Source: Pseudomonadota bacterium
GTDB lineage: Bacteria; Myxococcota_A; Polyangia; Polyangiales; Polyangiaceae
Direction of reading: 5' to 3'
Assembly (NCBI GenBank): GCA_023402175.1
Contig: JAEXCN010000099.1
Coordinates: forward strand, 25,178 to 57,177
DNA length: 32,000 nucleotides
Numbering within the stretch: the stretch's first letter is position 1; every line of letters starts with the position of its first letter. The position numbers and the translations under genes were made by a program. Shown one piece after another: positions 7,989 through 15,861 of the stretch. Under the pieces are notes generated by a model, which saw nothing but the letters and a program-made list of their open reading frames with translations, was not told the DNA's origin and ran no database searches.

Positions 7989-8045
7989 GTCAGCTCACCG
8001 GGGTTGAACCGGCAGCCTCTGCTCTCGGCCACGTTGGCGAGCAGT
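7989..8045 (-). pseudogene. truncated tRNA-like remnant (hairpin plus T-arm, ~57 nt)
   Basis: Hairpin CTGCTC...GAGCAG followed by T-arm GCCGG-TTCAACC-CCGGT. No complete cloverleaf and only 5/7 acceptor pairs. Confidence 0.4.
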
Positions 8046-8118
8046 ACGGGGCGAGAGGATCGAACTCTCCTAGCCCTGCTTGTGAGGCAGGTGTCATCAC
8101 CAGATGAGCGGGCCCCGC
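8045..8118 (-). tRNA. tRNA-Val(CAC), 74 nt, degenerate D-stem
   Basis: Acceptor GCGGGGC/GCCCCGT (G1-U72). AC CCTGC-CTCACAA-GCAGG. T GAGAG-TTCGATC-CTCTC. C8, and D-stem GCTC/TGAC mispaired. Confidence 0.65.
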
Positions 8119-8157
8119 GTTCTCCGCCCCGAACCGCAGCTCGGAGCGTTTTGCCGG

Positions 8158-8231
8158 TTCCGGAGGAGGGATTCGCACCCCTCATCCCAGCGGTTCAAAG
8201 CCGCGGATCTTTGCTCTTGGACCACTCCGGA
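8158..8231 (-). tRNA. tRNA-Gln(UUG), 74 nt, non-canonical
   Basis: Acceptor TCCGGAG/CTCCGGA. AC loop CTTTGAA. T-loop TGCGAAT (G55). D-loop CAAGAGCAAA lacks GG. Confidence 0.6.
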
Positions 8232-8285
8232 TCGGGCGCGTCGTGAGCGCTCGTACTCGAGCGCGTCCAGGGCAAGACGCGCCGG

Positions 8286-8354
8286 TCGCTACGGGCAGAG
8301 TCGAACTGCCTGGGCCGCGCTCATGAGGCGCGCCCTCCTCCGAGGAACGCAGCG
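8286..8354 (-). tRNA. tRNA(CAU) Met/Ile2-type, 69 nt, mini D-arm
   Basis: Acceptor CGCTGCG/CGTAGCG. D CCTC-GGAG-GAGG (4-nt loop). AC CGCGC-CTCATGA-GCGCG. T GGCAG-TTCGACT-CTGCC. Confidence 0.65.
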
Positions 8355-8389
8355 ATGCTTGCGTTCTGCACGGATGCGAACGCAGGCGG

Positions 8390-8460
8390 AGCGGTGACCG
8401 AGAATCGCACTCGGATCTCGAGCGTGGCGGGCTCGGGTTCTACTCTTGAACTATCACCGC
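8390..8460 (-). tRNA. tRNA-Gly(GCC), 71 nt, non-canonical
   Basis: Acceptor GCGGTGA/TCACCGC. D GTTC-AAGAGTA-GAAC (no GG). AC CGAGC-CCGCCAC-GCTCG (C33). T CCGAG-TGCGATT-CTCGG (G55). Confidence 0.7.
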
Positions 8461-8566
8461 AGAGGCCGGGCGATGACACCCATCGCGCACGGGTAGAGCG
8501 GCCCTCGCACCGTCCTCATCCTTCGCTACCAGTGAGGTGCCCCGCTCTCTGGCCGTGGGCGGCACG

Positions 8567-8623
8567 TGAAAAGAGCTCGTCCCCAAGTCATGTCCGCTTG
8601 GAGCTGTCCCTCGTGGGGACGAG
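8567..8623 (-). terminator. possible intrinsic terminator downstream of rsr
   Basis: Minus sense: 10-bp GC stem GCTCGTCCCC/GGGGACGAGC followed by TCTTTTC. The apical loop is long (30 nt), so the call is weak. Confidence 0.35.
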
Positions 8624-8705
8624 CAGGTGATCGGCAACGAGGGGCGTGAAGACGGGCCTTCACGGGCATTTGCCGGATGAATTCGATCGAGTCGCAGATC
8701 GACAA

Positions 8706-10313
8706 TCAGATCGAGACGGACTCGATCTCGTGGAGAAAGGCGGAGCCGTCGGCGTCACCTTTCGCGAACGCGGCCACGATCTCGAAGACGGCATCGGAGA
8801 AACCGCCGACGTTCAGCACATCGCTGCGGTTCGCGACCTGCGTGGTCGCGTAGGGCTGCAGGTCGACGAGCACGAGCCTGGCGCGCGGATTGTTCGCACG
8901 GAGTCGCTCCCATTCCTCGGCCATGACGGTCGCTCTCGTCGCGTTCGATGCGCTCGGATCCACAGCGCGTGGCTCGAGCCTGAAGTCCGCCCACGACTGG
9001 TTGTCGGAGACGAAGACGACGAGGTCGGGGGCCATGCCGCGCGCATTGAGCCACCGCAGCGGCGCAGCGCACGAGGTCCCGCCGCTCGGGAGCGACGAGA
9101 GGAGCTCGGCGTTGGTGACCACCGAATCCAGCGCGTTGAGCTGACGACGAAGGGGGACGACGTCGTCCGAGAACGGCAGGACCGTCGCGCGCTCGTTCTT
9201 CCGGAGCAGCGCGGCAGTCGCGAGCGCGGCGACGTCGATGCAACGGACCTTGGAGGAGGCAGTCCCGCGCCGGCCCGTGACTGGAGAGTGCATCGACCCT
9301 GACACGTCCGGACACAGCGCGACGGAGCCGGCGACCTCGGGCACGTTCGCGACGGCGTGCTCGACGGAGCGAGCCAGCGCGTTGACGATCCCCGGCGGCA
9401 TGCTGGTCTCGACCGCGCGATATGCGGCGAGGAGCTGATAGGGGAGTGTGCGCGAGCGCTTCACGGCCTCGGCATCCGAGAGCTTCTCGGCGACGAGATC
9501 GACCATCGCGGGATCGGTGAAGACGCCGTGACGGTAGAGCGTGTTGAGGTTCTGGCGGAGCTGATTGAACGTCATCTTCTTCGCCAGCTCGGTCCAGTGC
9601 TGGGCGCGCAGTGGGAGAGCGGTGAGCATCTCGAACGGCACGTCCGGCAGAGGCTCCCGATCGTTCTTCTTCCAGGCTTCGAATGCCTGGGTGAGCGGCG
9701 GGAGCTTGGAGCAGTCCACGTTCTTTCCGATGAGGTAGCCGTAGAGGGCCTCACGAACGGCATCGGCTTCGCCCTTGTCGTTCCGCGGGGGAGGGCGAAC
9801 CATCTTGATGACGTCCGACATGGACGGGCTCTGACCGATGGACTGGCGGAAGATGGTCTCGGGGCTCTTCGCTGCGAACCATTCGCGGAGCGCTCGCTTC
9901 GGGGCCGAGCCGAACGACTTGCGGCCCGTGACACCGGAGCGAACGATCGCCACGAACGTCCGCAGCATCCGCGCGTCGTCGATGACGCGTGGGAAGACAC
10001 GCAGCATGAGGGCGACATCGCGCGCGGCGAGCCAGGCGACGAGGAACGCCGGGACGTCCTTCATCCTGCCGTGCTTGCGGCAATACACGGCCGTCTTTGC
10101 GACGAGCTCCGGGCTCACCGAGCTCGCGAGTGCCGCGACGTTCTCGAGCTGCTGCTCGTCGGTCGCGTAGAACGTGCCGTGAAACGTGCCGGTGACTGCG
10201 TATTGCGCCAGAGCATGCTCGGGCGGGAGCGCGTATGCCAGGCCGCCGGCTTCGTTGAATGCGTCGGCAACGGGGGCATTTCCTCCGTGACCAAATAGAT
10301 GCTTGTTCGGCAT
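8706..10313 (-). CDS. rsr: Ro60-related protein Rsr (TROVE domain plus vWA/MIDAS domain), 535 aa
   Basis: ATG 10313 preceded by AAGGAGAAACC. N-terminus NEAGGLAYAL...GTFHGTFYATDEQQ (TROVE-like). C-terminus ALCPDVSGSM (DxSxS MIDAS)...GGTSCAAPL...VFVSDNQSW. The track ORF extends to 10988 only because the upstream tRNA genes lack stops. Confidence 0.85.
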   Translation of the reverse strand: MPNKHLFGHGGNAPVADAFNEAGGLAYALPPEHALAQYAVTGTFHGTFYATDEQQLENVAALASSVSPELVAKTAVYCRKHGRMKDVPAFLVAWLAARDVALMLRVFPRVIDDARMLRTFVAIVRSGVTGRKSFGSAPKRALREWFAAKSPETIFRQSIGQSPSMSDVIKMVRPPPRNDKGEADAVREALYGYLIGKNVDCSKLPPLTQAFEAWKKNDREPLPDVPFEMLTALPLRAQHWTELAKKMTFNQLRQNLNTLYRHGVFTDPAMVDLVAEKLSDAEAVKRSRTLPYQLLAAYRAVETSMPPGIVNALARSVEHAVANVPEVAGSVALCPDVSGSMHSPVTGRRGTASSKVRCIDVAALATAALLRKNERATVLPFSDDVVPLRRQLNALDSVVTNAELLSSLPSGGTSCAAPLRWLNARGMAPDLVVFVSDNQSWADFRLEPRAVDPSASNATRATVMAEEWERLRANNPRARLVLVDLQPYATTQVANRSDVLNVGGFSDAVFEIVAAFAKGDADGSAFLHEIESVSI

Positions 10314-10403
10314 GGTTTCTCCTTTCCGAGCTCGTGTGAGGTGTCGGTCGTGCGCTTGCTCCGGCGCACGATCGTGTGTTGTTCCGGTTTCGAAGAGATG
10401 AGG

Positions 10404-10477
10404 CGTTCCCGACGGGATTCGAACCCGTGTTCCTGGCTTGAGAGACCAGAGTCCTTGGCCGTCTAGACGACGGGAAC
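10404..10477 (-). tRNA. tRNA-Glu(CUC), 74 nt, canonical
   Basis: GTTCCCG TC GTC-TAGACGGCCAAG-GAC T CTGGT-CTCTCAA-GCCAG GAAC ACGGG-TTCGAAT-CCCGT CGGGAAC G. Confidence 0.9.
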
Positions 10478-10519
10478 CGACGAGGAGCGCGCGGAGGCGC
10501 GGGCGCAGTCGAAAGATGA

Positions 10520-10647
10520 AGGTCGTCCGAGTGTCTCGAGCATCGGTGTTGACTTGGGAGTCGAACCCAAAACGGTCAGCTTCTGAGGCTGGTGTCCTTC
10601 CATTGGACGAGTCGAGTGCGTGTGAGCTCGGGTCGAGCGGACGACCT
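10520..10647 (-). ncRNA. Y-RNA-like candidate: tRNA-like domain (anticodon CAG, short variable loop, weak acceptor) clamped by a long terminal stem module
   Basis: 10-bp H1 AGGTCGTCCG/CGGACGACCT, 7x7 internal loop (CTCGACC / AGACACT), 5-bp H2 CGAGC/GCTCG, then TCACACGC. This leads into D GTCC-AATGGAA-GGAC, AC CCAGC-CTCAGAA-GCTGA and T TTGGG-TTCGACT-CCCAA. The same module occurs in units A-D. Lies about 200 nt upstream of rsr. Confidence 0.5.
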
Positions 10648-10721
10648 GGATGCAGCGGCTGGAGTCGCACCAGCGTCTCGAGCTTATGAGGCTCGCGGGG
10701 TGGCTCCTCCCCCACGCTGCA
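10647..10721 (-). tRNA. tRNA(CAU) Met/Ile2-type, 72 nt plus encoded CCA
   Basis: Acceptor TGCAGCG/CGCTGCA. D GGGG-AGGAGCCA-CCCC. AC CGAGC-CTCATAA-GCTCG. T GCTGG-TGCGACT-CCAGC (G55). T73-CCA. Confidence 0.75.
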
Positions 10722-10760
10722 ATGAGTCTCCGGATCGAGAGTGTTCTCGCGTCTGGAGGG

Positions 10761-10830
10761 CACCTTCGCCGGGAGTCGAACCCGGAGAACGAGCTTCGGA
10801 GGCTCGGCCCTGATTCCGCAGGACGAAGGT
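10761..10830 (-). tRNA. tRNA-Arg(CCG), 70 nt
   Basis: Acceptor ACCTTCG/CGAAGGT. AC CGAGC-CTCCGAA-GCTCG. T CCGGG-TTCGACT-CCCGG. D-arm CCTG-CGGAAT-CAGG shifted by 1 nt. Confidence 0.7.
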
Positions 10831-10834
10831 AGGG

Positions 10835-10923
10835 AGGAAGAAAGAGGTCTCGAACCCCACACGCTCTTCCGAGCGTGCGCATTGCTTTCGAGGCAAGCCC
10901 GGCGCCCAGCCGGTTTTTCATCC
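10835..10923 (-). tRNA. tRNA-Ser(CGA), class II, 89 nt
   Basis: Acceptor GGATGAA/TTCTTCC (one U-U). AAA linker. D CCGG-CTGGGCG-CCGG. AC loop CTCGAAA. Variable arm ACGCTC-GGAA-GAGCGT. T-loop TTCGAGA. Confidence 0.75.
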
Positions 10924-10930
10924 ATGTCAG

Positions 10931-11003
10931 TGGTCGGTGAGGGAATCGAACCCCCTACGCAGAGCTTTTCAAACTCCCGCTCTACCAATTGAGCTTACCG
11001 ACC
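10931..11003 (-). tRNA. tRNA-Phe(GAA), 73 nt, canonical
   Basis: GGTCGGT AA GCTC-AATTGGTA-GAGC G GGAGT-TTGAAAA-GCTCT GCGTA GGGGG-TTCGATT-CCCTC ACCGACC A. Confidence 0.9.
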
Positions 11004-11015
11004 GTTTCAACGTGC

Positions 11016-11090
11016 TGGCCTCCCCGCCAGGAATCGAACCTGGACAACTGGCTTCGTAGACCGGTGCGTGGGATCCACCACGACGAGGAG
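11016..11090 (-). tRNA. tRNA-Arg(ACG), 72 nt plus encoded CCA
   Basis: Acceptor CTCCTCG/CGGGGAG. AC loop CTACGAA (stem has a C-A mismatch). T CCAGG-TTCGATT-CCTGG. 5-bp shifted D-stem CGTGG/CCACG. Confidence 0.7.
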
Positions 11091-11094
11091 AGGG

Positions 11095-11182
11095 AGGAAG
11101 GCAGAGGACTCGAACCTCACGCGGCTCGACACCGCGCGAATCGCGTTCCAGACGATCTCCGCCCCCGGCGGATTTGCCTTCC
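11095..11182 (-). tRNA. tRNA-Ser(GGA), class II, 88 nt
   Basis: Acceptor GGAAGGC/GCCTTCC. AAA linker. D TCCG-CCGGGGG-CGGA. AC ATCGT-CTGGAAC-GCGAT. Variable arm CGCGG...CCGCG. T-loop TTCGAGT. Paralog of Ser(CGA). Confidence 0.75.
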
Positions 11183-11216
11183 GGGTATTGCAATGCGCCT
11201 GCTCATGCGAGCGCGG

Positions 11217-11291
11217 TCAGGACGGCAGGATTCGAACCTGCGCTCTCCAGTCCCCCAGACTGGCGCTTTTGCCGGGCTAAGCTACGCCCTG
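11217..11291 (-). tRNA. tRNA-Pro(GGG), 75 nt
   Basis: CAGGGCG TA GCTT-AGCCCGGCAA-AAGC G CCAGT-CTGGGGG-ACTGG AGAGC GCAGG-TTCGAAT-CCTGC CGTCCTG A. Confidence 0.85.
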
Positions 11292-11390
11292 AGGCTTTCA
11301 CGTAGTCGTGGAAATCAAGAATAAAGTGGTCCAGTTTCACGTCATGGACCAGGACGCGGGAGCTCTGTCGACGCTCACGCGATCGACGCC

Positions 11391-11924
11391 TCATGCAGAG
11401 AGCGGAGCCGAAGCCGTGTAGCCGTCGCAGTACGGCTGCCAGACATCCGGCAGATCACCCTCATCGAGACGGATCGGCGGCACGGCGGGCAGCCAGGTCG
11501 GCTTCTTCGGCTGCCGCAGCAGCTTCATGCCGGCCTGCTCAGGCGTGCGGCTCCCCTTGCGATCGTTGCATGCGTAGCAGGAGGTGACGATGTTCTCCCA
11601 AACCGTCTTTCCTCCCTGCACGCGCGGGATGACGTGGTCGTAGTTGAGGCCTCTGATCGGCTTCTTGTCACCGCAGTACTGGCAGCGGAACCTGTCGCGC
11701 GTAAAGACGTTCATCCGGGAGAAGCGGACCGACTGCTTCGTCGACACCGACCCCTTCTTCAGGCGGACCACGGCGGGCGTCATCATCGCGATGCTCGGGG
11801 CACGGAGCTCCGCGTCCCAGGTCTCGATGACTTCGACCTTGCCGAGATAAGCCAGCACGACGGCGCGCTGCCAGGGAATGATCTTGTGAGGCGCCATCCA
11901 TGGAGTCAGCATCAGCGTTTGCAT
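11391..11924 (-). CDS. HNH endonuclease (177 aa)
   Basis: CQYCG...DHVIPRVQGGKTVWENIVTSCYACNDRKG (HNH with Cys4 zinc motif). N-terminus IIPWQRAVVLAYLGKVEVIE is typical of the small stand-alone HNH family. Same strand as the tRNA array. Confidence 0.85.
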   Translation of the reverse strand: MQTLMLTPWMAPHKIIPWQRAVVLAYLGKVEVIETWDAELRAPSIAMMTPAVVRLKKGSVSTKQSVRFSRMNVFTRDRFRCQYCGDKKPIRGLNYDHVIPRVQGGKTVWENIVTSCYACNDRKGSRTPEQAGMKLLRQPKKPTWLPAVPPIRLDEGDLPDVWQPYCDGYTASAPLSA

Positions 11925-12064
11925 GGGTCACCGTTTCTTTCTCGTTTTCAAGGCTCGATCTCCTTTTCGGAGGGATGAAGAAGTCGTGCGGGATGCACGA
12001 CGACGGGCGTCATCAGAGATAGCGAACGGACGGTGCGCTGATGTTGCTCGGATATGGCGAGTAG

Positions 12065-12149
12065 TGTCACCGGAGGGAGTCGAACCCTCAAACTCGCAAC
12101 GGAGCCCAGCATCTCGGGCTGGCGTGTATTCCAGTTCCACCACGGTGAC
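12065..12149 (-). tRNA. tRNA-Leu(GAG), class II, 85 nt
   Basis: Acceptor GTCACCG/CGGTGAC, A73. 3-bp D-stem. AC CCAGC-CCGAGAT-GCTGG (C33). ~16-nt variable arm. T GAGGG-TTCGACT-CCCTC. Confidence 0.8.
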
Positions 12150-12186
12150 GTGTCGCGTCCGTCTCGCGCTCGGCGATCTTGGACGT

Positions 12187-12266
12187 TGGTACCGACGGAG
12201 GGATTCGAACCCTCACAACACACAGTTTCTGAGACTGCGGCCTCTACCAGATTGGGCCACGTCGGC
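12187..12266 (-). tRNA. tRNA with Leu anticodon CAG but only a 7-nt variable loop (77 nt plus CCA)
   Basis: GCCGACG TG GCC-CAATCTGGTAGA-GGC C GCAGT-CTCAGAA-ACTGT GTGTTGT GAGGG-TTCGAAT-CCCTC CGTCGGT A CCA. Leu-like D-arm but no long variable arm. Confidence 0.65.
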
Positions 12267-12298
12267 ATGAAGCGCGATCCGCAGGGCGGCTTGCGCGG

Positions 12299-12373
12299 TC
12301 TGTGCAGGAGGATTCGAACCTCCAATCCCTCCGACCCGAACGGAGTGCTCTAGCCAGGTTGAGCCATGCACAG
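12299..12373 (-). tRNA. tRNA-Pro(CGG), 75 nt, canonical
   Basis: CTGTGCA TG GCTC-AACCTGGCTA-GAGC A CTCCG-TTCGGGT-CGGAG GGATT GGAGG-TTCGAAT-CCTCC TGCACAG A (C1-G72, A73). Confidence 0.9.
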
Positions 12374-12412
12374 AGAAACGACGATGATCGACGGGAGCTC
12401 GAGCCATCGCCG

Positions 12413-12484
12413 TGGTGGACCAGTCGGGAGTCGCACCCGAACCATCTGCTTGCAAGACAGACGTCTCCCCTCGGAGACAAGCCC
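12413..12484 (-). tRNA. tRNA-Ala(UGC), 69 nt plus CCA, mini D-arm
   Basis: Acceptor GGGCTTG/CTGGTCC with G3-U70. D CTCC-GAGG-GGAG (4-nt loop). AC TCTGT-CTTGCAA-GCAGA. T TCGGG-TGCGACT-CCCGA (G55). Confidence 0.7.
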
Positions 12485-12523
12485 ATGTTGAATCACTGCA
12501 TGACGGCGGGACTGGCCCGCCGG

Positions 12524-12596
12524 TGCGGCGCGCAGGGATCGCACCTGCCTCCTCCTGCTCGTCATGCAGGCGCAGTCGCTAGACTGCCAGCGCCGC
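12524..12596 (-). tRNA. tRNA-Val(GAC), 73 nt
   Basis: GCGGCGC TG GCAG-TCTAGCGA-CTGC G CCTGC-ATGACGA-GCAGG AGGAG GCAGG-TGCGATC-CCTGC GCGCCGC A. G55, and no GG in the D-loop. Confidence 0.75.
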
Positions 12597-12619
12597 TCTT
12601 CTCGTCGAAGAGAGCTTCG

Positions 12620-12692
12620 TGGATCACCTGCGAATCGAACGCAGTGCGGGCTCCTTATCAGAGAGTCCAGGGTGACCAACCCGTCGTGATCC
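12620..12692 (-). tRNA. tRNA-Ile(GAU), 73 nt
   Basis: GGATCAC GA CGGG-TTGGTCAC-CCTG G ACTCT-CTGATAA-GGAGC CCGCA CTGCG-TTCGATT-CGCAG GTGATCC A. Confidence 0.8.
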
Positions 12693-12715
12693 GTCGTTTA
12701 TGTCTGGTGAACGAT

Positions 12716-12787
12716 TGGAGAGCCGAGAGGGAGTTGAACCCTCGCGCGCCGTTTTGCAGACGACGATCCTCCCCGGAGAATCGGCTC
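12716..12787 (-). tRNA. tRNA-Cys(GCA), 69 nt plus CCA, mini D-arm
   Basis: Acceptor GAGCCGA/TCGGCTC. D TCC-GGGGA-GGA. AC GTCGT-CTGCAAA-ACGGC. T GAGGG-TTCAACT-CCCTC. T73-CCA. Confidence 0.65.
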
Positions 12788-12852
12788 GAAGAAGTGGGCG
12801 CAGTTCCCTGTTGGCCGACGTCACGTGCGCGTCGGACGTTGGGGCTGCGCGG

Positions 12853-12923
12853 AGCGGGCAGAGGGAATCGCACCCTCATTGTCAGTTTGGAAGACTGCGG
12901 TCCTACTGTTGGACGATACCCGC
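12853..12923 (-). tRNA. tRNA-Gly(UCC), 71 nt
   Basis: GCGGGTA TC GTCC-AACAGTA-GGAC C GCAGT-CTTCCAA-ACTGA CAAT GAGGG-TGCGATT-CCCTC TGCCCGC T. G55, and no GG in the D-loop. Confidence 0.75.
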
Positions 12924-13119
12924 AGGATATGAATCGAAGTATCGCAAGCCTCGACGAGATTGACGAAGACGTAGGTGATCGGCAGCTCGCGCTGCCGGGC
13001 ACCATGATGCACGAGCGAGCAGCAGCCGCTCTTGCATCATCGGCACATTGAAGCCGCCCGCGAAGGCAGCTTCCGTTCGCCCCGCAAGGAGAGAGTCCAC
13101 CGAGGTGGTCTCCTGAGAA

Positions 13120-13225
13120 GCGCTCGGCTGGAGTCCGCGGAGCGCTCTCTGACTCTCCCTATGCCATCGCTAGGTCGGTCGCCCGACGTTCGCTACCTTA
13201 GGACCGTTATAGTTACGGATGTAGT
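13120..13225 (-). ncRNA. 23S rRNA domain IV (H69-H71) look-alike fragment inside a ~400-nt non-tRNA spacer
   Basis: Minus sense 13218..13189 reads CCGTAACTATAACGGTCCTAAGGTAGCGAA, which as I recall it is the universally conserved 23S segment and contains the I-CeuI site. It is followed by GTCGGG..CCGACCT..CGATGGC..GAGAGTCAGAGA..CCGCGG, patches colinear with 23S H70/H71 but with the loops deleted. Confidence 0.6.
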
Positions 13226-13322
13226 CCTCGTCGGCATTCGAGACCGACGCTGATGTTGCTCGTGTCGTGTGAGATCTGTTGTTCGTAATTTTCGAGATCG
13301 CTGCCCAGGGATGGGGCAGCGC

Positions 13323-13398
13323 TGGTGGAACCGGCCGGACTCGCACCGGCAACCTCCTCGATGCCATCGAGGCGCTCTCCTGGCTGAGCTACGGCCCC
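13323..13398 (-). tRNA. tRNA-Ala(GGC), 73 nt plus CCA
   Basis: GGGGCCG TA GCTC-AGCCAGGA-GAGC G CCTCG-ATGGCAT-CGAGG AGGTT GCCGG-TGCGAGT-CCGGC CGGTTCC A CCA. G3-U70, G55. Confidence 0.85.
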
Positions 13399-13425
13399 TT
13401 TCGTTCGGATGTCCTTCGCGTGTGG

Positions 13426-13499
13426 TGGTGGAGCGACGGGGAATCGCACCCCGATCCCTGCAATGCGAATGCAGCGTTCTCCTGTTGAACTATCGCCCC
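13426..13499 (-). tRNA. tRNA-Ala(CGC), 71 nt plus CCA
   Basis: GGGGCGA TA GTTC-AACAGGA-GAAC G CTGCA-TTCGCAT-TGCAG GGAT CGGGG-TGCGATT-CCCCG TCGCTCC A CCA. G3-U70, G55. Confidence 0.8.
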
Positions 13500-13533
13500 A
13501 GGGTCCCCACGTGGTGGGGAGCAGACAAGTCGG

Positions 13534-13604
13534 CAGGCCGCGAAGGAATCGAACCCTCTCTCCGGGGGTTGGAATCCCGGCTGGTCACCATGACTCTACG
13601 GCCT
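13534..13604 (-). tRNA. tRNA-Trp(CCA), 71 nt, aberrant D-arm
   Basis: Acceptor AGGCCGT/GCGGCCT, G73. AC CGGGA-TTCCAAC-CCCCG (A31-C39 mismatch). T GAGGG-TTCGATT-CCTTC. The D region pairs only as GTC-ATGGT-GAC. Confidence 0.65.
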
Positions 13605-13631
13605 GTGCTCTCGAGCGCGGTGCGCTTGCAG

Positions 13632-13703
13632 CGCCTCGTAGGGGAATCGAACCCCTCTCGCCCCATAGACAGTGGGGTTGCGACGCCAGTCGCATCACGA
13701 GGC
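13632..13703 (-). tRNA. tRNA-Asp(GUC), 72 nt
   Basis: GCCTCGT GA TGCG-ACTGGCGT-CGCA A CCCCA-CTGTCTA-TGGGG CGAG AGGGG-TTCGATT-CCCCT ACGAGGC G. Position 37 is U. Confidence 0.75.
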
Positions 13704-13727
13704 AATGAACGTCGATATTCGTGGCGG

Positions 13728-13799
13728 TGTCCTCGGCAGGAGTCGAACCCGCGTCTGCCGGTTTAGAAGACCGGCGCCTCTCCGCTCGGCCACGAGGAC
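13728..13799 (-). tRNA. tRNA-Arg(UCU), 72 nt
   Basis: GTCCTCG TG GCC-GAGCGGAGA-GGC G CCGGT-CTTCTAA-ACCGG CAGAC GCGGG-TTCGACT-CCTGC CGAGGAC A. The D-arm looks like a class II type. Confidence 0.75.
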
Positions 13800-13820
13800 G
13801 TTCTTGCTCTCCTGGCTCGG

Positions 13821-13885
13821 CGTCCCCGGCAGGAGTCGAACCTGCGTCGACCGGATTAGGAGCCTATCCGTTCGGCCAGGATGAC
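13821..13885 (-). pseudogene. tRNA-like paralog of Arg(UCU) with ~7-nt deletion in the anticodon arm (65 nt)
   Basis: GTCATCC TG GCC-GAACGGATA-GGC T CC..TAATCCGG TCGAC GCAGG-TTCGACT-CCTGC CGGGGAC G. Two acceptor mismatches and no 5-7-5 anticodon arm. Confidence 0.5.
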
Positions 13886-13929
13886 AGAGGCTGTCTGCGC
13901 AGGCGAAGAGTGGATCGGTGCGCGGCCGG

Positions 13930-14002
13930 GGTAGCGTACGGGAATCGCACCCGCCTCCACTGAGTCACAATCAGCCCTCGTCACTAGACGAGTAACGCTA
14001 CC
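13930..14002 (-). tRNA. tRNA-His(GUG) with encoded G-1, 73 nt
   Basis: G-1 GTAGCGT TA CTCG-TCTAGTGA-CGAG G GCTGA-TTGTGAC-TCAGT GGAG GCGGG-TGCGATT-CCCGT ACGCTAC C73. G55. Confidence 0.8.
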
Positions 14003-14084
14003 ATGTATTCAGATGCTCATTCGAGTCGGTGATGTCAACCTCGAGCCTGAATTTCGTCTGCCGTTGATAGGCACTTCGTCGAAC

Positions 14085-14159
14085 TGGTGCTCCCGATCGG
14101 AATCGAACCGATACCTTCCGCTTGAAAGGCGGAGATCCTGACCACTAGATGACGGGAGC
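14085..14159 (-). tRNA. tRNA-Glu(UUC), 72 nt plus CCA
   Basis: GCTCCCG TC ATC-TAGTGGTCAG-GAT C TCCGC-CTTTCAA-GCGGA AGGT ATCGG-TTCGATT-CCGAT CGGGAGC A CCA. Confidence 0.85.
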
Positions 14160-14165
14160 AAACGT

Positions 14166-14308
14166 GTCGTCCGAGTGAGAAGGTCGTTGTCATGTGAATG
14201 ACGGGTTGACTGCCCGTTGCCTTACCACTTGGCTACGATGGCGAAACGCCAGCGGCTGGATTCGAACCAGCGATTCGATTGCGTGTAGGACCTGTTCGAT
14301 CGGACGAC
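14166..14308 (-). ncRNA. permuted tRNA-like ncRNA unit A (Y-RNA/YrlA-like candidate)
   Basis: Minus-sense order: H1 GTCGTCCG, loop ATCGAAC, H2 AGGTC, CTACACGCAATCGAATC. Then T-arm GCTGG-TTCGAAT-CCAGC, acceptor 3' strand CGCTGGC, cap GTTTC, acceptor 5' strand GCCATCG, TA. Then D GCC-AAGTGGTAA-GGC, hairpin ACGGG-CAGTCAA-CCCGT, H2' GACCT, loop TCTCACT, H1' CGGACGAC. Confidence 0.5.
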
Positions 14309-14457
14309 GACGAGGGGGCCGTAGAGCGCCGACGATGATCGGCGCGGTAAAGGAGCGCCTCGTCAGGTGCGTGCCTGCGAGGCGTGGAGCTCAGAGGCGA
14401 GCTCGGCAAGCTCGGCGGCGTCCGGTGCGTTGGACGCGCGGGCTGCTGAAGAAAAGT

Positions 14458-14627
14458 CCTCACCCGAGTGAAAAAGCCGGTTGGATGGTTCCATCATTCA
14501 AGATGAGTGCCTTTACCAGTTAGGCTATCGCTGCGTACGATTTGCGGTGGCGGGCACCGTGAGCAGCGAGTCGGATTCGAACCGACATTTCCTCGATTGC
14601 GTGTAGGGCATCTTCGGTCGGGTGAGG
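14458..14627 (-). ncRNA. permuted tRNA-like ncRNA unit B
   Basis: H1 CCTCACCCG/CGGGTGAGG, loops ACCGAAG / TTTCACT, H2 ATGCC/GGCTT, CTACACGCAAT. T GTCGG-TTCGAAT-CCGAC. Acceptor TCGCTGC, 28-nt cap, GCAGCGA. D GCC-TAACTGGTAAA-GGC. Hairpin TCATC-TTGAAT-GATGG. Confidence 0.5.
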
Positions 14628-14663
14628 GAAATCGGAATGCGCTTAGCTCGCTGCGCGAGCATC

Positions 14664-14744
14664 TGGTCCCCCGTGATGGAATCGAACCACCTACCGAAAG
14701 GCACCGGGTTACGACCGGCTGCTCCGCCATGGAGCGAACGAGGG
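14664..14744 (-). tRNA. tRNA-Tyr(GUA), 78 nt plus CCA
   Basis: CCCTCGT TC GCTC-CATGGCG-GAGC A GCCGG-TCGTAAC-CCGGT GCCTTTCGGTA GGTGG-TTCGATT-CCATC ACGGGGG A CCA. C33, 11-nt variable region. Confidence 0.75.
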
Positions 14745-14752
14745 AAGAGGGG

Positions 14753-14909
14753 CACCCGAGTGAGAAAGCCGTGTTGTCGTCTGAATGGACGAGCGCCTTA
14801 CCATTAGGCCACGCTGGAATAGGTGTTTTGGAGCTCGATGGCTCACGGCTCCAGCGGACGGAATCGAACCGTCGTGTCTCATTGCGTGTAGGGCATTCCC
14901 TGGCGGGTG
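14753..14909 (-). ncRNA. permuted tRNA-like ncRNA unit C
   Basis: H1 CACCCG/CGGGTG, loops CCAGGGA / TCTCACT, H2 ATGCC/GGCTT, CTACACGCAAT. T GACGG-TTCGATT-CCGTC. Acceptor CGCTGGA, 31-nt cap, TCCAGCG (identical to the tRNA-Asn acceptor). D GCC-TAATGGTAA-GGC. Hairpin TCGTC-CATTCA-GACGA. Confidence 0.5.
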
Positions 14910-14913
14910 ACGG

Positions 14914-14985
14914 AGCCCACGTCCGGAGTCGAACCGGATCCTCCCGTGTACGAGACGGGTGCTCGACCATTCGAGCTGCGCGGGC
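14914..14985 (-). tRNA. tRNA-Thr(CGU), 72 nt, canonical
   Basis: GCCCGCG CA GCTC-GAATGGTC-GAGC A CCCGT-CTCGTAC-ACGGG AGGA TCCGG-TTCGACT-CCGGA CGTGGGC T. Confidence 0.9.
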
Positions 14986-14988
14986 AGG

Positions 14989-15042
14989 GGCCCCATGTAC
15001 TCATGGGGAACGAAAGAGGCGGGCCCCATGTACTCATGGGGA
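14989..15042. repeat. two direct copies of a 21-bp hairpin element (GGCCCCATGTACTCATGGGGA), period 33 bp
   Basis: Copies at 14989-15009 and 15022-15042. Each contains the inverted repeat CCCCATG-tact-CATGGGG. A related CCATG-ttgct-CATGG occurs at about 15486-15500. Confidence 0.7.
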
Positions 15043-15118
15043 AAAGAAGGTGCTCGCGGTGCGCGCGTCGCCTGGGTGGGAGGCGCGCGCGCCGGCGCGA
15101 GCGGGTGAGAAGAATGTC

Positions 15119-15264
15119 TCGTCCGAGTGGAGAAGCCGGTGCAAGTGCTCGTATGCGAAACGAGTGCCTTCCCATTAGGCTAGCAGCCCTGTGCCTTGCG
15201 GCTGGTGGACCACGTTGGAGTCGAACCAACATGTTGTGCGTGTAAGGCTTGTCCGAGCGGACGA
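15119..15264 (-). ncRNA. permuted tRNA-like ncRNA unit D (tRNA-Ala-type body)
   Basis: H1 TCGTCCG/CGGACGA, loops CTCGGAC / CTCCACT, H2 AAGCC/GGCTT, TTACACGCACAACAT. T GTTGG-TTCGACT-CCAAC. GTGGTCC-A-CCA, 13-nt linker GCCGCAAGGCACA, then GGGCTGC (7 pairs including G3-U70). TA, D GCC-TAATGGGAA-GGC, hairpin CTCGT-TTCGCAT-ACGAG (CGC). Confidence 0.55.
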
Positions 15265-15269
15265 AGAAG

Positions 15270-15341
15270 CTCCAGCGGAAGGAATCGAACCTTCGAAGGA
15301 CCGGTTAACGGCCGGCTGCCTGACCATTCGGCTTCGCTGGA
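15270..15341 (-). tRNA. tRNA-Asn(GUU), 72 nt
   Basis: TCCAGCG AA GCC-GAATGGTCA-GGC A GCCGG-CCGTTAA-CCGGT CCTTC GAAGG-TTCGATT-CCTTC CGCTGGA G. C33, U1-A72, G73. Confidence 0.8.
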
Positions 15342-15521
15342 ATACGTGCTCGTCGCGTTCGTGCCGCGCTGCTGCCGTCTCGACGAACCCGATCTCTTCC
15401 GAGGCAGGACGACGAAGCGGTCAGCGCGCACGAGACGCGACGAGCCTTGGCGCCAAGTTGTCATAGAGCGAGGGACCTCGAGCTCCCCATGTTGCTCATG
15501 GAGAACGAGACCGAGAGTCCT

Positions 15522-15595
15522 TGGTTCCGAGCACAGGATTCGAACCTGTCTTCCTGGTTTCAGAGGCCAGTGTCCTGCCGCTAGACGAGCCCGGA
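15522..15595 (-). tRNA. tRNA-Gln(CUG) with Glu-type body, 71 nt plus CCA
   Basis: TCCGGGC TC GTC-TAGCGGCAG-GAC A CTGGC-CTCTGAA-ACCAG GAAG ACAGG-TTCGAAT-CCTGT GCTCGGA A CCA. Close in body to Glu(CUC) at 10404. Confidence 0.75.
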
Positions 15596-15653
15596 GCAGG
15601 CGGCGGCGTGCGAAGGTCGCAAGTCGCCGGTGCCACGTCGTTCGACGCAGCAG

Positions 15654-15726
15654 TAGGTCCGGAGGGAATCGAACCCTCACCACCCCGGGTAAGAGCCGGG
15701 TGCGCTTCCGATTGCGCTACGGACCT
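15654..15726 (-). tRNA. tRNA-Lys(CUU), 73 nt, canonical
   Basis: AGGTCCG TA GCGC-AATCGGAA-GCGC A CCCGG-CTCTTAC-CCGGG GTGGT GAGGG-TTCGATT-CCCTC CGGACCT A. Confidence 0.9.
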
Positions 15727-15788
15727 GTATTTGGCGCGATGCGACGAACCGGGGCAGCACTGCCCGCAGCCGCACGCATCGCGGTGAG

Positions 15789-15861
15789 TGGGACGCGAGG
15801 GAGTCGAACCCTCATCCCTCGGCTTAAAAGGCCGGTGCTCGGCCGATTGAGCTAGCGCCCC
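15789..15861 (-). tRNA. tRNA-Lys(UUU), 73 nt, canonical
   Basis: GGGGCGC TA GCTC-AATCGGCC-GAGC A CCGGC-CTTTTAA-GCCGA GGGAT GAGGG-TTCGACT-CCCTC GCGTCCC A. First gene of the array in the direction of transcription. Confidence 0.9.

Follow-up and report, generated by a model that had tools for sequence, protein, structure and literature searches.

The closest described relatives of the RNAs considered here are the bacterial Y RNAs of the YrlA type. Chen et al. 2014 (PMC4201824) located the genes of these RNAs on the strand that encodes Ro60, no more than about 4 kb from it. YrlA pairs its termini, which hold a GNCGAA-type motif, and continues with YUAY, a T arm, a stem-loop resembling a closed acceptor, UA and a D arm, the Levitt pair being kept by covariation (PMC4201824). 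It has been likened to a circularly permuted tRNA with a closed acceptor, is sometimes encoded beside tRNAs, and 'lacks the anticodon loop' (Wang et al. 2018, 10.1101/312249). The DNA analysed here, hereafter the window, is a stretch of 32,000 nucleotides from a Polyangiaceae genome (assembly GCA_023402175.1, contig JAEXCN010000099.1), in which an array of tRNA genes contains four permuted tRNA-like units (A to D), a fifth unit in a different arrangement (E) and rsr, the gene for a Ro60 orthologue. Judged from sequence comparison, the probability that the five units are Y RNAs which partner the Ro60/Rsr of the same array is roughly 0.78. The feature is thus of a known kind, that of the YrlA-type Y RNA, and apparently represents an undescribed structural variant which is widespread in Myxococcota.

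Several precedents bear on how such RNAs may be made and kept. RNAs of the YrlA type are bound and stabilised by Rsr and carry modifications made by TruB and DusA, and the Y RNAs of Deinococcus radiodurans lose stability when rsr is deleted. The YrlA of Mycobacterium smegmatis has a 7-bp acceptor, is cut by RNase P and acquires CCA (PMC4201824; 10.1101/312249). In Deinococcus radiodurans, Yrn2, tRNA-Asp and Yrn1 are made as one precursor and then processed (PMC4201824). Y RNAs may descend from dimeric tRNA transcripts (10.1101/312249), and PMC12135203 gives a stem-bulge-stem with a CGAA motif as the canonical layout for binding Ro60.

Permuted tRNA-like units and the Ro60 gene of their array

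Units A to D follow a common parse (Table 1). From the 5' end each runs through a 7-bp helix (H1), a 7x7 internal loop, a 5-bp helix (H2), the tract Y-UACACGC and a short spacer, then a T arm (GGUUCGAnUCC) and an acceptor of 7 bp, whose closing cap measures 5, 28, 31 and 17 nt in units A, B, C and D, respectively. UA or UG, a D arm, N26 (one purine), a hairpin and a linker follow, and the unit ends with the 3' strand of H2 (GACCU or GGCUU), NNNCACU and the 3' strand of H1. The sequence TACACGCA occurs four times in the window, always on the minus strand, once in each of units A to D and nowhere else. The 3' ends of A and C and the 5' ends of C and D each have a tRNA no more than about 6-10 nt away; unit C is directly flanked by tRNA-Thr at its 5' end and by tRNA-Tyr at its 3' end.

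The four units had been picked out in a sequence-only reading of this DNA, and the parse places them where that reading did, to within 3 nt. It agrees also on the order of T arm, closed acceptor, cap, D arm, hairpin and terminal stem, on the sequences of H1 and H2, on the 3' loop strand NNNCACU in all four units and on their interleaving with normal tRNAs, tRNA-Glu being found in addition to tRNA-Asn, Thr and Tyr. The acceptor of unit C (UCCAGCG/CGCUGGA, then G) is, as noted there, that of the tRNA-Asn at 15270-15341, and the identity extends to the discriminator. The variable region, and not the anticodon stem, was said to be where the chain opens, with all four tRNA arms present; this is upheld, because a true anticodon-type hairpin follows the D stem. 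The anticodon-like hairpin ascribed to every unit is a clean 5-bp stem only in A (loop CAGUCAA) and D (loop UUCGCAU), and is degenerate in B and C, the loop of C having 6 nt.

Units A to D are real, structured small-RNA genes. A covariance model, R1, was built from 42 non-redundant homologues, none of them from the window, and its matches to the four units (82.7 to 109.5 bits, E 1e-16 to 1e-22) are far beyond chance. A search of this sort had been proposed in the sequence-only reading, and R1 both matches the window units and finds homologues in other genomes. Pairing was measured in a 42-sequence MAFFT alignment (A2) and in 138 R1 matches, representing 136 distinct sequences (A3). The share of paired cells, which leans towards the structure since the seeds were chosen by a motif pattern and a pairing filter and A3 was fitted to R1, is 94.2% in A2 and 95.1% in A3, against 28-46% and 28-48% in slid controls. 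Double-change cells number 341 in A2 (controls 54-73) and 1069 in A3 (controls at most 242). For the same reason the fairer evidence is that of the slid controls and of a free RNAalifold run, which recovers the same six helices without a supplied structure and lengthens H1 outward by two covarying pairs. Compensatory pairs occur in each of the six helices of A3, where 93% of cells are paired in H1 and 98% in H2. Covariation of the terminal stem, which had been both claimed from the window units and set as a test in homologues, is seen at six of seven H1 pairs and all five H2 pairs, albeit with the innermost H1 pair unpaired in about 43% of the family. Single-sequence folds give z values of -3.6, -4.9, -1.7 and -3.4 for units A, B, C and D.

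The tRNA-like character of the family is apparent from 109 units taken individually. The hairpin starts 1 nt past the D stem, and in 83 of them it combines a stem of 5 bp with a loop of 7 nt; the loop has Y32 in 94%, U33 in 93% and R37 in 87%. The 'anticodons' it presents are near-random, with 36 different triplets that include stop and rare A34 triplets. GG is present in every D loop, and the T loop reads UUCGAnU. The base that precedes the T stem and position 15 of the D loop covary (A:U in 54 and G:C in 28 of the 109, about 46 expected if independent), like the Levitt pair 15:48. The stems themselves are diverse, with at least 15 D-stem types (e.g. GCUC..GAGC, GCCA..AGGC, GUCC..GGAC and GCGG..ACGC) and free variation at three of the five T-stem pairs. 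The acceptor is strictly 7 bp, a purine 'discriminator' is present in 74% of units, and caps often begin NCC or NCCA. When the units were un-permuted in silico, by opening the cap and replacing the terminal module with five bases, ARAGORN called a tRNA in 102 of the 109, as against 2 in native order; unit A became a tRNA-Asp(gtc) and unit D a tRNA-Ala(cgc). Downstream of the terminal stem, a run of at least four T within 25 nt is found for 39 of 110 units and in 2.2% of background windows, which would fit discrete RNA ends.

In the terminal module, the 5' strand of the internal loop has the family consensus GCCGAWG. The exact motif GNCGAAN0-1G occurs in 17 of 109 units and CGAA in 33. Among the window units, CGAA is retained, though not the first G, in A (AUCGAAC) and B (ACCGAAG), and is absent from C (CCAGGGA) and D (CUCGGAC); CUAC or UUAC follows H2 in all four.

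The presumed protein partner of the five units is Rsr, a ring-shaped protein that binds RNA. Pfam recognises the Ro60-type vWA domain (vWA_Ro60, 8.6e-15) and the TROVE domain (2.1e-8), and the best match by sequence in the PDB is the D. radiodurans Rsr 2nvo (E 3.6e-16), over the full length. The NCBIfam model RNA-bind_Rsr scores 1.6e-21, which is below the model's cut-off. With the TROVE protein of Myxococcus phage Mx1, which is itself encoded in an array of tRNA and HNH genes, Rsr shares 45% identity. Upstream of rsr and on its strand lie E at 0.2 kb, A at 3.9, B at 4.1, C at 4.4 and D at 4.8 kb. The gene is buried in a mechanical open reading frame (ORF) of 760 aa, 8706-10988, which runs across tRNA genes, and it was overlooked in the sequence-only reading, where the units were framed as an undescribed kind of permuted tRNA gene. 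That framing falls, since a Ro60 gene stands in the same array and on the same strand and YrlA had already been described as a permuted tRNA mimic; the units are a variant within the Y RNA/YrlA kind. What survives of the claim to novelty is the variant, which does appear undescribed.

Unit E, some 210 nt upstream of rsr, carries the terminal module of A to D (H1 GUCGUCCG/CGGACGAC, H2 CGAGC/GCUCG, CACACGCA and CACUCGG) on a core in the normal order of D arm, anticodon arm and T arm, with an acceptor-like stem of 4 bp. ARAGORN mis-calls it as a tRNA-Leu(cag) at 10545-10616, Rfam sees a weak tRNA (36.6 bits), and its single-sequence fold is weakly supported (z -1.0). Homologues of the E type, six in all, stand between permuted units and Ro-like genes at other loci (L027, L082, L099, L103, L113 and L123). 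Because the ACACGCA tract is kept in E-type units, whose core is in normal order, it is predicted to belong to the Ro-binding module. The cloverleaf is inserted in either circular permutation, A-D or E, on one terminal module.

Relation to known Y RNAs and distribution of the family

The likeness to YrlA (Rfam RF02553) extends to a same-strand rsr gene nearby (up to about 4 kb), to paired termini in the form of a stem-bulge-stem, and to the succession of YUAY, T arm, closed acceptor, UA and a D arm with GG, with covariation of the Levitt pair. Neighbouring tRNA genes are found as for some Y RNAs, and the acceptor has 7 bp as in M. smegmatis YrlA. The principal difference is in where the chain opens. 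In the Rfam consensus YrlA opens at the anticodon loop, its 'anticodon stem' closing a three-way core of T, acceptor and D without a hairpin, whereas the units have a full anticodon arm and carry the predicted Ro-binding stem in the place of a long variable arm. They also have features of their own in the tracts UACACGCA and CACUCGG, the 7x7 loop and the common tandem sets of three to seven. A variant with a complete anticodon arm appears to be undescribed in Rfam 15 and in the Y RNA papers examined. A search of a literature library found no paper linking Y RNAs or Rsr to Myxococcus or to tRNA arrays, although the supplementary tables of Chen et al. 2014 may include myxobacterial members.

At gathering thresholds Rfam reports only tRNAs in the window. 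With E allowed up to 10, unit A gives a partial YrlA match of 21.6 bits over model positions 29-81 and units B to D score nothing. The cross-match is confined to the T-acceptor-D core in both directions, R1 scoring 22 bits on the YrlA of mycobacteriophage Sebata. Identity with permuted transfer-messenger RNA (tmRNA) was considered and rejected, as the Rfam permuted-tmRNA model has no match on the units. A blastn search of the 2-kb region against 50,697 phage records returned short tRNA matches only.

The Yrn1 and Yrn2 RNAs of D. radiodurans are alike in forming their Ro-binding stem from the termini and in being cotranscribed with a tRNA (PMC4201824). Yrn1 has a T arm and a possible anticodon arm, and its T/D order is opposite to that of YrlA, as in unit E. 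Its tRNA features are partial, however, with no clear D arm and a 6-nt 'anticodon' loop, and units A to D have the YrlA-like orientation. No sequence similarity was found between the units and Yrn1 or Yrn2. Phage-borne Ro60 systems, namely mycobacteriophage YrlA and Yrl1/Yrl2 of Thermus phage phiLo, likewise have Y-like RNAs upstream, with a stem-bulge-stem and CGAA (PMC12135203); in the text examined the phiLo Yrls are described as stem-bulge-stem RNAs and a tRNA-like domain is not mentioned. An association with tRNA-rich regions of phages is shared as well, Mx1 having the closest phage Rsr. Sebata YrlA differs from the units in having no anticodon-like arm 1 nt past the D stem. The Mx1 array combines a TROVE gene with a YrlA-type RNA, and the region examined has this canonical type and no member of the permuted family. 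In the Mx1 stretch (L009), 255-383 and 1732-2109 hold a YrlA candidate, which Rfam matches at full length with 32 bits, and a tmRNA gene scoring 117.7 bits. The Mx1 record annotates neither, and a coding sequence labelled 'Hef-like endonuclease' overlies part of the tmRNA region.

The distribution of the family was followed with a motif pattern taken from the units and scanned over viral contigs and over contigs of one genome per species. There are four true loci in viral contigs and, among the matches listed, more than 118 genome loci, nearly all in Myxococcota and with several copies per genome; the false positives of the pattern are anticodon loops of tRNA-Val(UAC). The family is present across the classes of Myxococcota and in phage-like contigs of 45-60% GC. 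Its carriers include culturable Myxococcus, Archangium, Corallococcus and Pyxidicoccus, and tandem sets of three to seven units are common (for example L086, L103, L075, L066, L026 and L022). On a 199.6-kb contig of about 45-48% GC (L005), three units lie within 4 kb of a Ro-like gene fragment, so that the family extends beyond high-GC hosts. L003, from an IMG/VR contig of 42.7 kb, has two divergent units (45-47 bits with R1) at 2716-2990 on the plus strand, upstream of a divergent Ro-like gene.

Within the stretch examined at each locus, a Ro-like gene accompanies the units in 30 of 99 cases, 4 canonical and 26 divergent. A tblastn search with the window Rsr found Ro genes in three genome loci, and clustering of ORFs together with hidden Markov models revealed the divergent family in 26 more. 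These 26 genes (about 583 aa) lie immediately downstream of units and on the same strand. Their products look like Ro60. Profile comparison with Ro60 gives a probability of 96.6%, falling to 53% for the N-terminal part alone, without the vWA domain. The five top PDB matches of a modest AlphaFold model (pLDDT 68) are full-length Ro60 structures with TM about 0.35; every other match covers the vWA domain only. With more than 1,100 proteins, the family (L027, L052, L086, L113 and others) is large and highly conserved, and is annotated only as 'VWA domain-containing'. Its gene heads a cassette that continues with a 336-aa uncharacterised protein, a Prok-JAB protein, an 89-aa protein and a ThiF/E1-like protein; in L129/L130 the operon occupies 8001-11974.

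Competing readings and a possible mechanism

Several observations weigh against regarding the units as Y RNAs of the YrlA type. The score of unit A with RF02553, 21.6 bits, is far from the gathering score of 69, and the exact YrlA 5' motif (GNCGAAN0-1G) is present in none of the four window units. The D- and T-stem sequences vary in the manner of different tRNAs, whereas they are nearly invariant in YrlA. Of the unit loci, 69 of 99 have no Ro-like gene within a median of 3.4 kb downstream, these orphan copies being found mainly in Myxococcaceae and Archangium, and the divergent Ro-like operon of L130 has no unit upstream. The syntenic array of a Labilithrix sp. metagenome-assembled genome (MAG), L022, keeps three permuted units in the absence of both rsr and unit E. 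Since rsr is missing there at the position matching 8563-10402 of the window, it would have been gained or lost within conserved arrays, and this array and the 69 loci together suggest that some copies may act without an adjacent Ro60. As to the Rfam score, the threshold is an unfair test of membership, since the bona fide YrlA of Sebata (37.4 bits) and that of Mx1 (32 bits) fall below it as well.

If the cloverleaf rather than the terminal stem is taken as the important part, the units might be tRNA decoys or sensors largely independent of Ro60, directed at anticodon nucleases, tRNA-modifying enzymes or phage and defence factors, with the terminal stem serving for stability. An anticodon-like loop whose shape is conserved and whose triplet is free would suit such a role, as would the many dispersed copies with no Ro-like gene in the flank examined, the presence of the family on large phage-like contigs and in HNH-bearing tRNA arrays, and the resemblance of the JAB/E1-like cassette of the divergent Ro-like genes to a conflict system. 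This is nevertheless improbable, as the terminal module is conserved in sequence as well as in pairing and matches the Ro-binding layout, the units recur beside Ro60 genes, canonical or divergent, of the same strand, and they show no consistent linkage to any nuclease or defence gene. For the orphan copies a role independent of Ro may nonetheless hold. The cloverleaf would be put to its ordinary use if the units were true circularly permuted tRNA genes, the terminal stem being excised, the ends ligated (by RtcB, for example) and the cap opened by RNase P and RNase Z to yield decoding tRNAs, a possibility which Wang et al. raised for YrlA (10.1101/312249). In Cyanidioschyzon merolae and some archaea, permuted precursors with a bulge-helix-bulge are cut by the splicing endonuclease and circularised, and give essential decoding tRNAs (PMC3978253; PMC3218864). 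The units share with these precursors a 3' half, made up of the T arm and the acceptor 3' strand, upstream of the 5' half, an acceptor that is closed at first and termini that pair, and the frequency with which un-permuted units are called as tRNAs, the 7-bp acceptor with its discriminator purine, the many NCC or NCCA caps and the conserved U33 and R37 all speak for a tRNA. At the junction, however, there is a symmetric 7x7 (or 6x6) internal loop between helices and no pair of 3-nt bulges separated by 4 bp, a bacterial splicing endonuclease is not known (10.1101/312249), and no rtcB gene was seen among the window genes. Nor is there an evident need for such products: the tRNA set is already complete, with a standard tRNA-Ala(cgc) at 13426-13499 and tRNA-Asp(gtc) at 13631-13703 in the array itself, and the anticodons are unconstrained and near-random, with stop and A34 triplets among them and with defective loops in B and C. 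The part that would be discarded, with ACACGCA and CACUCGG, is moreover the most conserved. Processing into decoding tRNAs of the C. merolae type is accordingly judged unlikely, and the explanation as a whole very improbable.

It might also be supposed that the units are debris, either tRNA pseudogenes left by tandem duplication and recombination in the array or a tRNA-derived miniature inverted-repeat transposable element (MITE). H1 does resemble a terminal inverted repeat, there are several copies per genome, and the junction of a degenerate tRNA-Arg with its neighbour in the same array mimics the layout of a unit well enough to give a 45-bit R1 match. Yet compensatory changes run through all helices of the 136 distinct sequences, the tertiary pair covaries, copies that differ in their inner tRNA-like parts keep the terminal module, the reverse of what a MITE family shows, and the family is conserved across the classes of Myxococcota and in phage-like contigs. 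The covariation effectively refutes this explanation, which retains a negligible chance.

As Y RNAs, the units most likely act bound to Ro60 after being processed out of the tRNA transcript. They would be transcribed with the tRNA array, their ends being set by RNase P and by 3'-end processing of the abutting tRNAs. The two ends pair, as covariation indicates, to form H1, the 7x7 internal loop and H2. By analogy with characterised Y RNAs, this stem-bulge-stem would be the module to which Rsr binds, with the CGAA-type strand on the 5' side of the loop and the conserved tracts ACACGCA and CACUCGG among its parts. The remainder reads as a complete tRNA cloverleaf with a closed acceptor, in which the variable region is replaced by the putative Ro-binding stem. 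The tRNA mimic may be the effector end, recruiting a tRNA-binding partner or an exoribonuclease such as PNPase, so that Rsr would be gated or directed in RNA decay or repair. A machine composed of Ro60, Y RNA and PNPase exists in Deinococcus and Salmonella. As the acceptor has exactly 7 bp and a discriminator-like purine, often with C or CCA next, it is possible that RNase P cuts the cap and that CCA is added, as in M. smegmatis YrlA, leaving an RNA in two pieces.

A bolder version would make the family a distinct class of Y RNA, with the complete cloverleaf as the active part on a Ro60-binding stem, coupling tRNA damage to decay or repair by Ro60, and with a link to JAB and E1 proteins. Cutting by RNase P and addition of CCA would then give a two-piece tRNA-like molecule that could be charged; alternatively the cloverleaf may serve as bait for anticodon-loop nucleases or modification enzymes, for instance during phage attack. 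This has an outside chance; if true, the divergent Ro60-like/JAB/E1 cassette would link Y RNAs to a ubiquitin-like conjugation system.

Taken as Y RNAs partnering Ro60, the units are of interest for the function of the tRNA-like end of bacterial Y RNAs, on which they offer a sharper handle. The mimic is complete, with acceptor, D, anticodon and T arms and a tertiary pair; a locus has several copies of it, and both circular permutations are found on the one predicted Ro-binding stem that they share. There is also a lesson for annotation, in that Rfam 15 misses the units, ARAGORN calls unit E a tRNA-Leu and gene finders bury rsr in a longer ORF. Finally, the family and the degenerate tRNA-Arg pair in the same array support the proposal that Y RNAs originated from tandem tRNA transcripts.

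Feature coordinates and the surrounding array

Table 1. Positions in the window of the units, their parts and the genes of the array (paired strands are separated by a slash)
Feature	Coordinates	Strand	Basis or score
tRNA gene array hosting the units and rsr	8044..15861	-	~33 tRNA genes
rsr, Ro60 orthologue, 535 aa, TROVE and Ro60-type vWA	8706..10313	-	annotated gene call; Pfam
Unit E, fifth family member, non-permuted	10520..10640	-	R1 37.3 bits, E 2e-6
HNH endonuclease gene, inside tRNA array	11391-11924	within minus-strand array	Pfam
Unit A, permuted tRNA-like RNA	14165..14309	-	R1 105.5 bits, E 1.6e-21
Unit A terminal module, H1	14301-14307/14167-14173	-	parse
Unit A terminal module, internal loop	14294-14300/14174-14180	-	parse
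Unit A terminal module, H2	14289-14293/14181-14185	-	parse
Unit A tract CUACACGC	14281-14288	-	parse
Unit A T arm	14255-14271	-	parse
Unit A acceptor	14248-14254/14236-14242	-	parse
Unit A cap	14243-14247	-	parse
Unit A D arm	14219-14233	-	parse
Unit A anticodon-like arm, loop CAGUCAA	14201-14217	-	parse
Unit B	14458..14627	-	R1 92.1 bits
Unit B H1	14619-14625/14460-14466	-	parse
Unit B internal loop, ACCGAAG/UUUCACU	14612-14618/14467-14473	-	parse
Unit B H2	14607-14611/14474-14478	-	parse
Unit B T arm	14570-14586	-	parse
Unit B acceptor, cap 28 nt	14563-14569/14528-14534	-	parse
Unit B D arm	14509-14525	-	parse
Unit B degenerate anticodon-like region	14491-14507	-	parse
Unit C	14750..14912	-	R1 82.7 bits
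Unit C H1	14904-14910/14752-14758	-	parse
Unit C H2	14892-14896/14766-14770	-	parse
Unit C T arm	14857-14873	-	parse
Unit C acceptor, cap 31 nt	14850-14856/14812-14818	-	parse
Unit C D arm	14795-14809	-	parse
Unit C hairpin, loop 6 nt	14777-14793	-	parse
Unit D	15117..15266	-	R1 109.5 bits, E 2e-22
Unit D H1	15258-15264/15119-15125	-	parse
Unit D H2	15246-15250/15133-15137	-	parse
Unit D tract UUACACGC	15238-15245	-	parse
Unit D T arm	15214-15230	-	parse
Unit D acceptor	15207-15213/15183-15189	-	parse
Unit D cap, starts ACCA	15190-15206	-	parse
Unit D D arm	15166-15180	-	parse
Unit D anticodon-like arm, loop UUCGCAU	15148-15164	-	parse

The window forms part of a metagenome scaffold of 88.7 kb. 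It is of high GC content (about 67%) and its other genes are ordinary cellular ones, among them a Ser/Thr kinase, an M18 aminopeptidase, ComM, RecA and a sigma-54 activator with an FHA domain. ARAGORN makes 31 calls in the array, to which Rfam adds the tRNA-Asn at 15270-15341 and a tRNA at 12416-12484. The array is syntenic, at about 70-85% identity, with those of Myxococcales bacterium 68-20 and of Labilithrix MAGs, which marks the source as a Polyangia-type myxobacterium.

The 45-bit R1 match at 13732-13880 on the minus strand is a junction between two tRNAs and was rejected as a sixth unit. It comprises a degenerate copy of tRNA-Arg, in which the anticodon stem is partly deleted, directly upstream of the tRNA-Arg(tct) at 13726-13799; the acceptor 3' strand of the degenerate copy can pair with the following tRNA's 5' strand, which accounts for the match. 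In form the pair resembles the 'dimeric tRNA' from which YrlA has been proposed to originate.

Between unit D and tRNA-Thr there are two identical 18-nt hairpins, CCCCATGAGTACATGGGG, at 15024-15041 and 14991-15008 on the minus strand, with similar hairpins near 15480-15500 and 13510-13525. The CCCCATGAGTACATGGGG hairpins could be processing signals, terminators or elements like the repetitive extragenic palindromes (REP).

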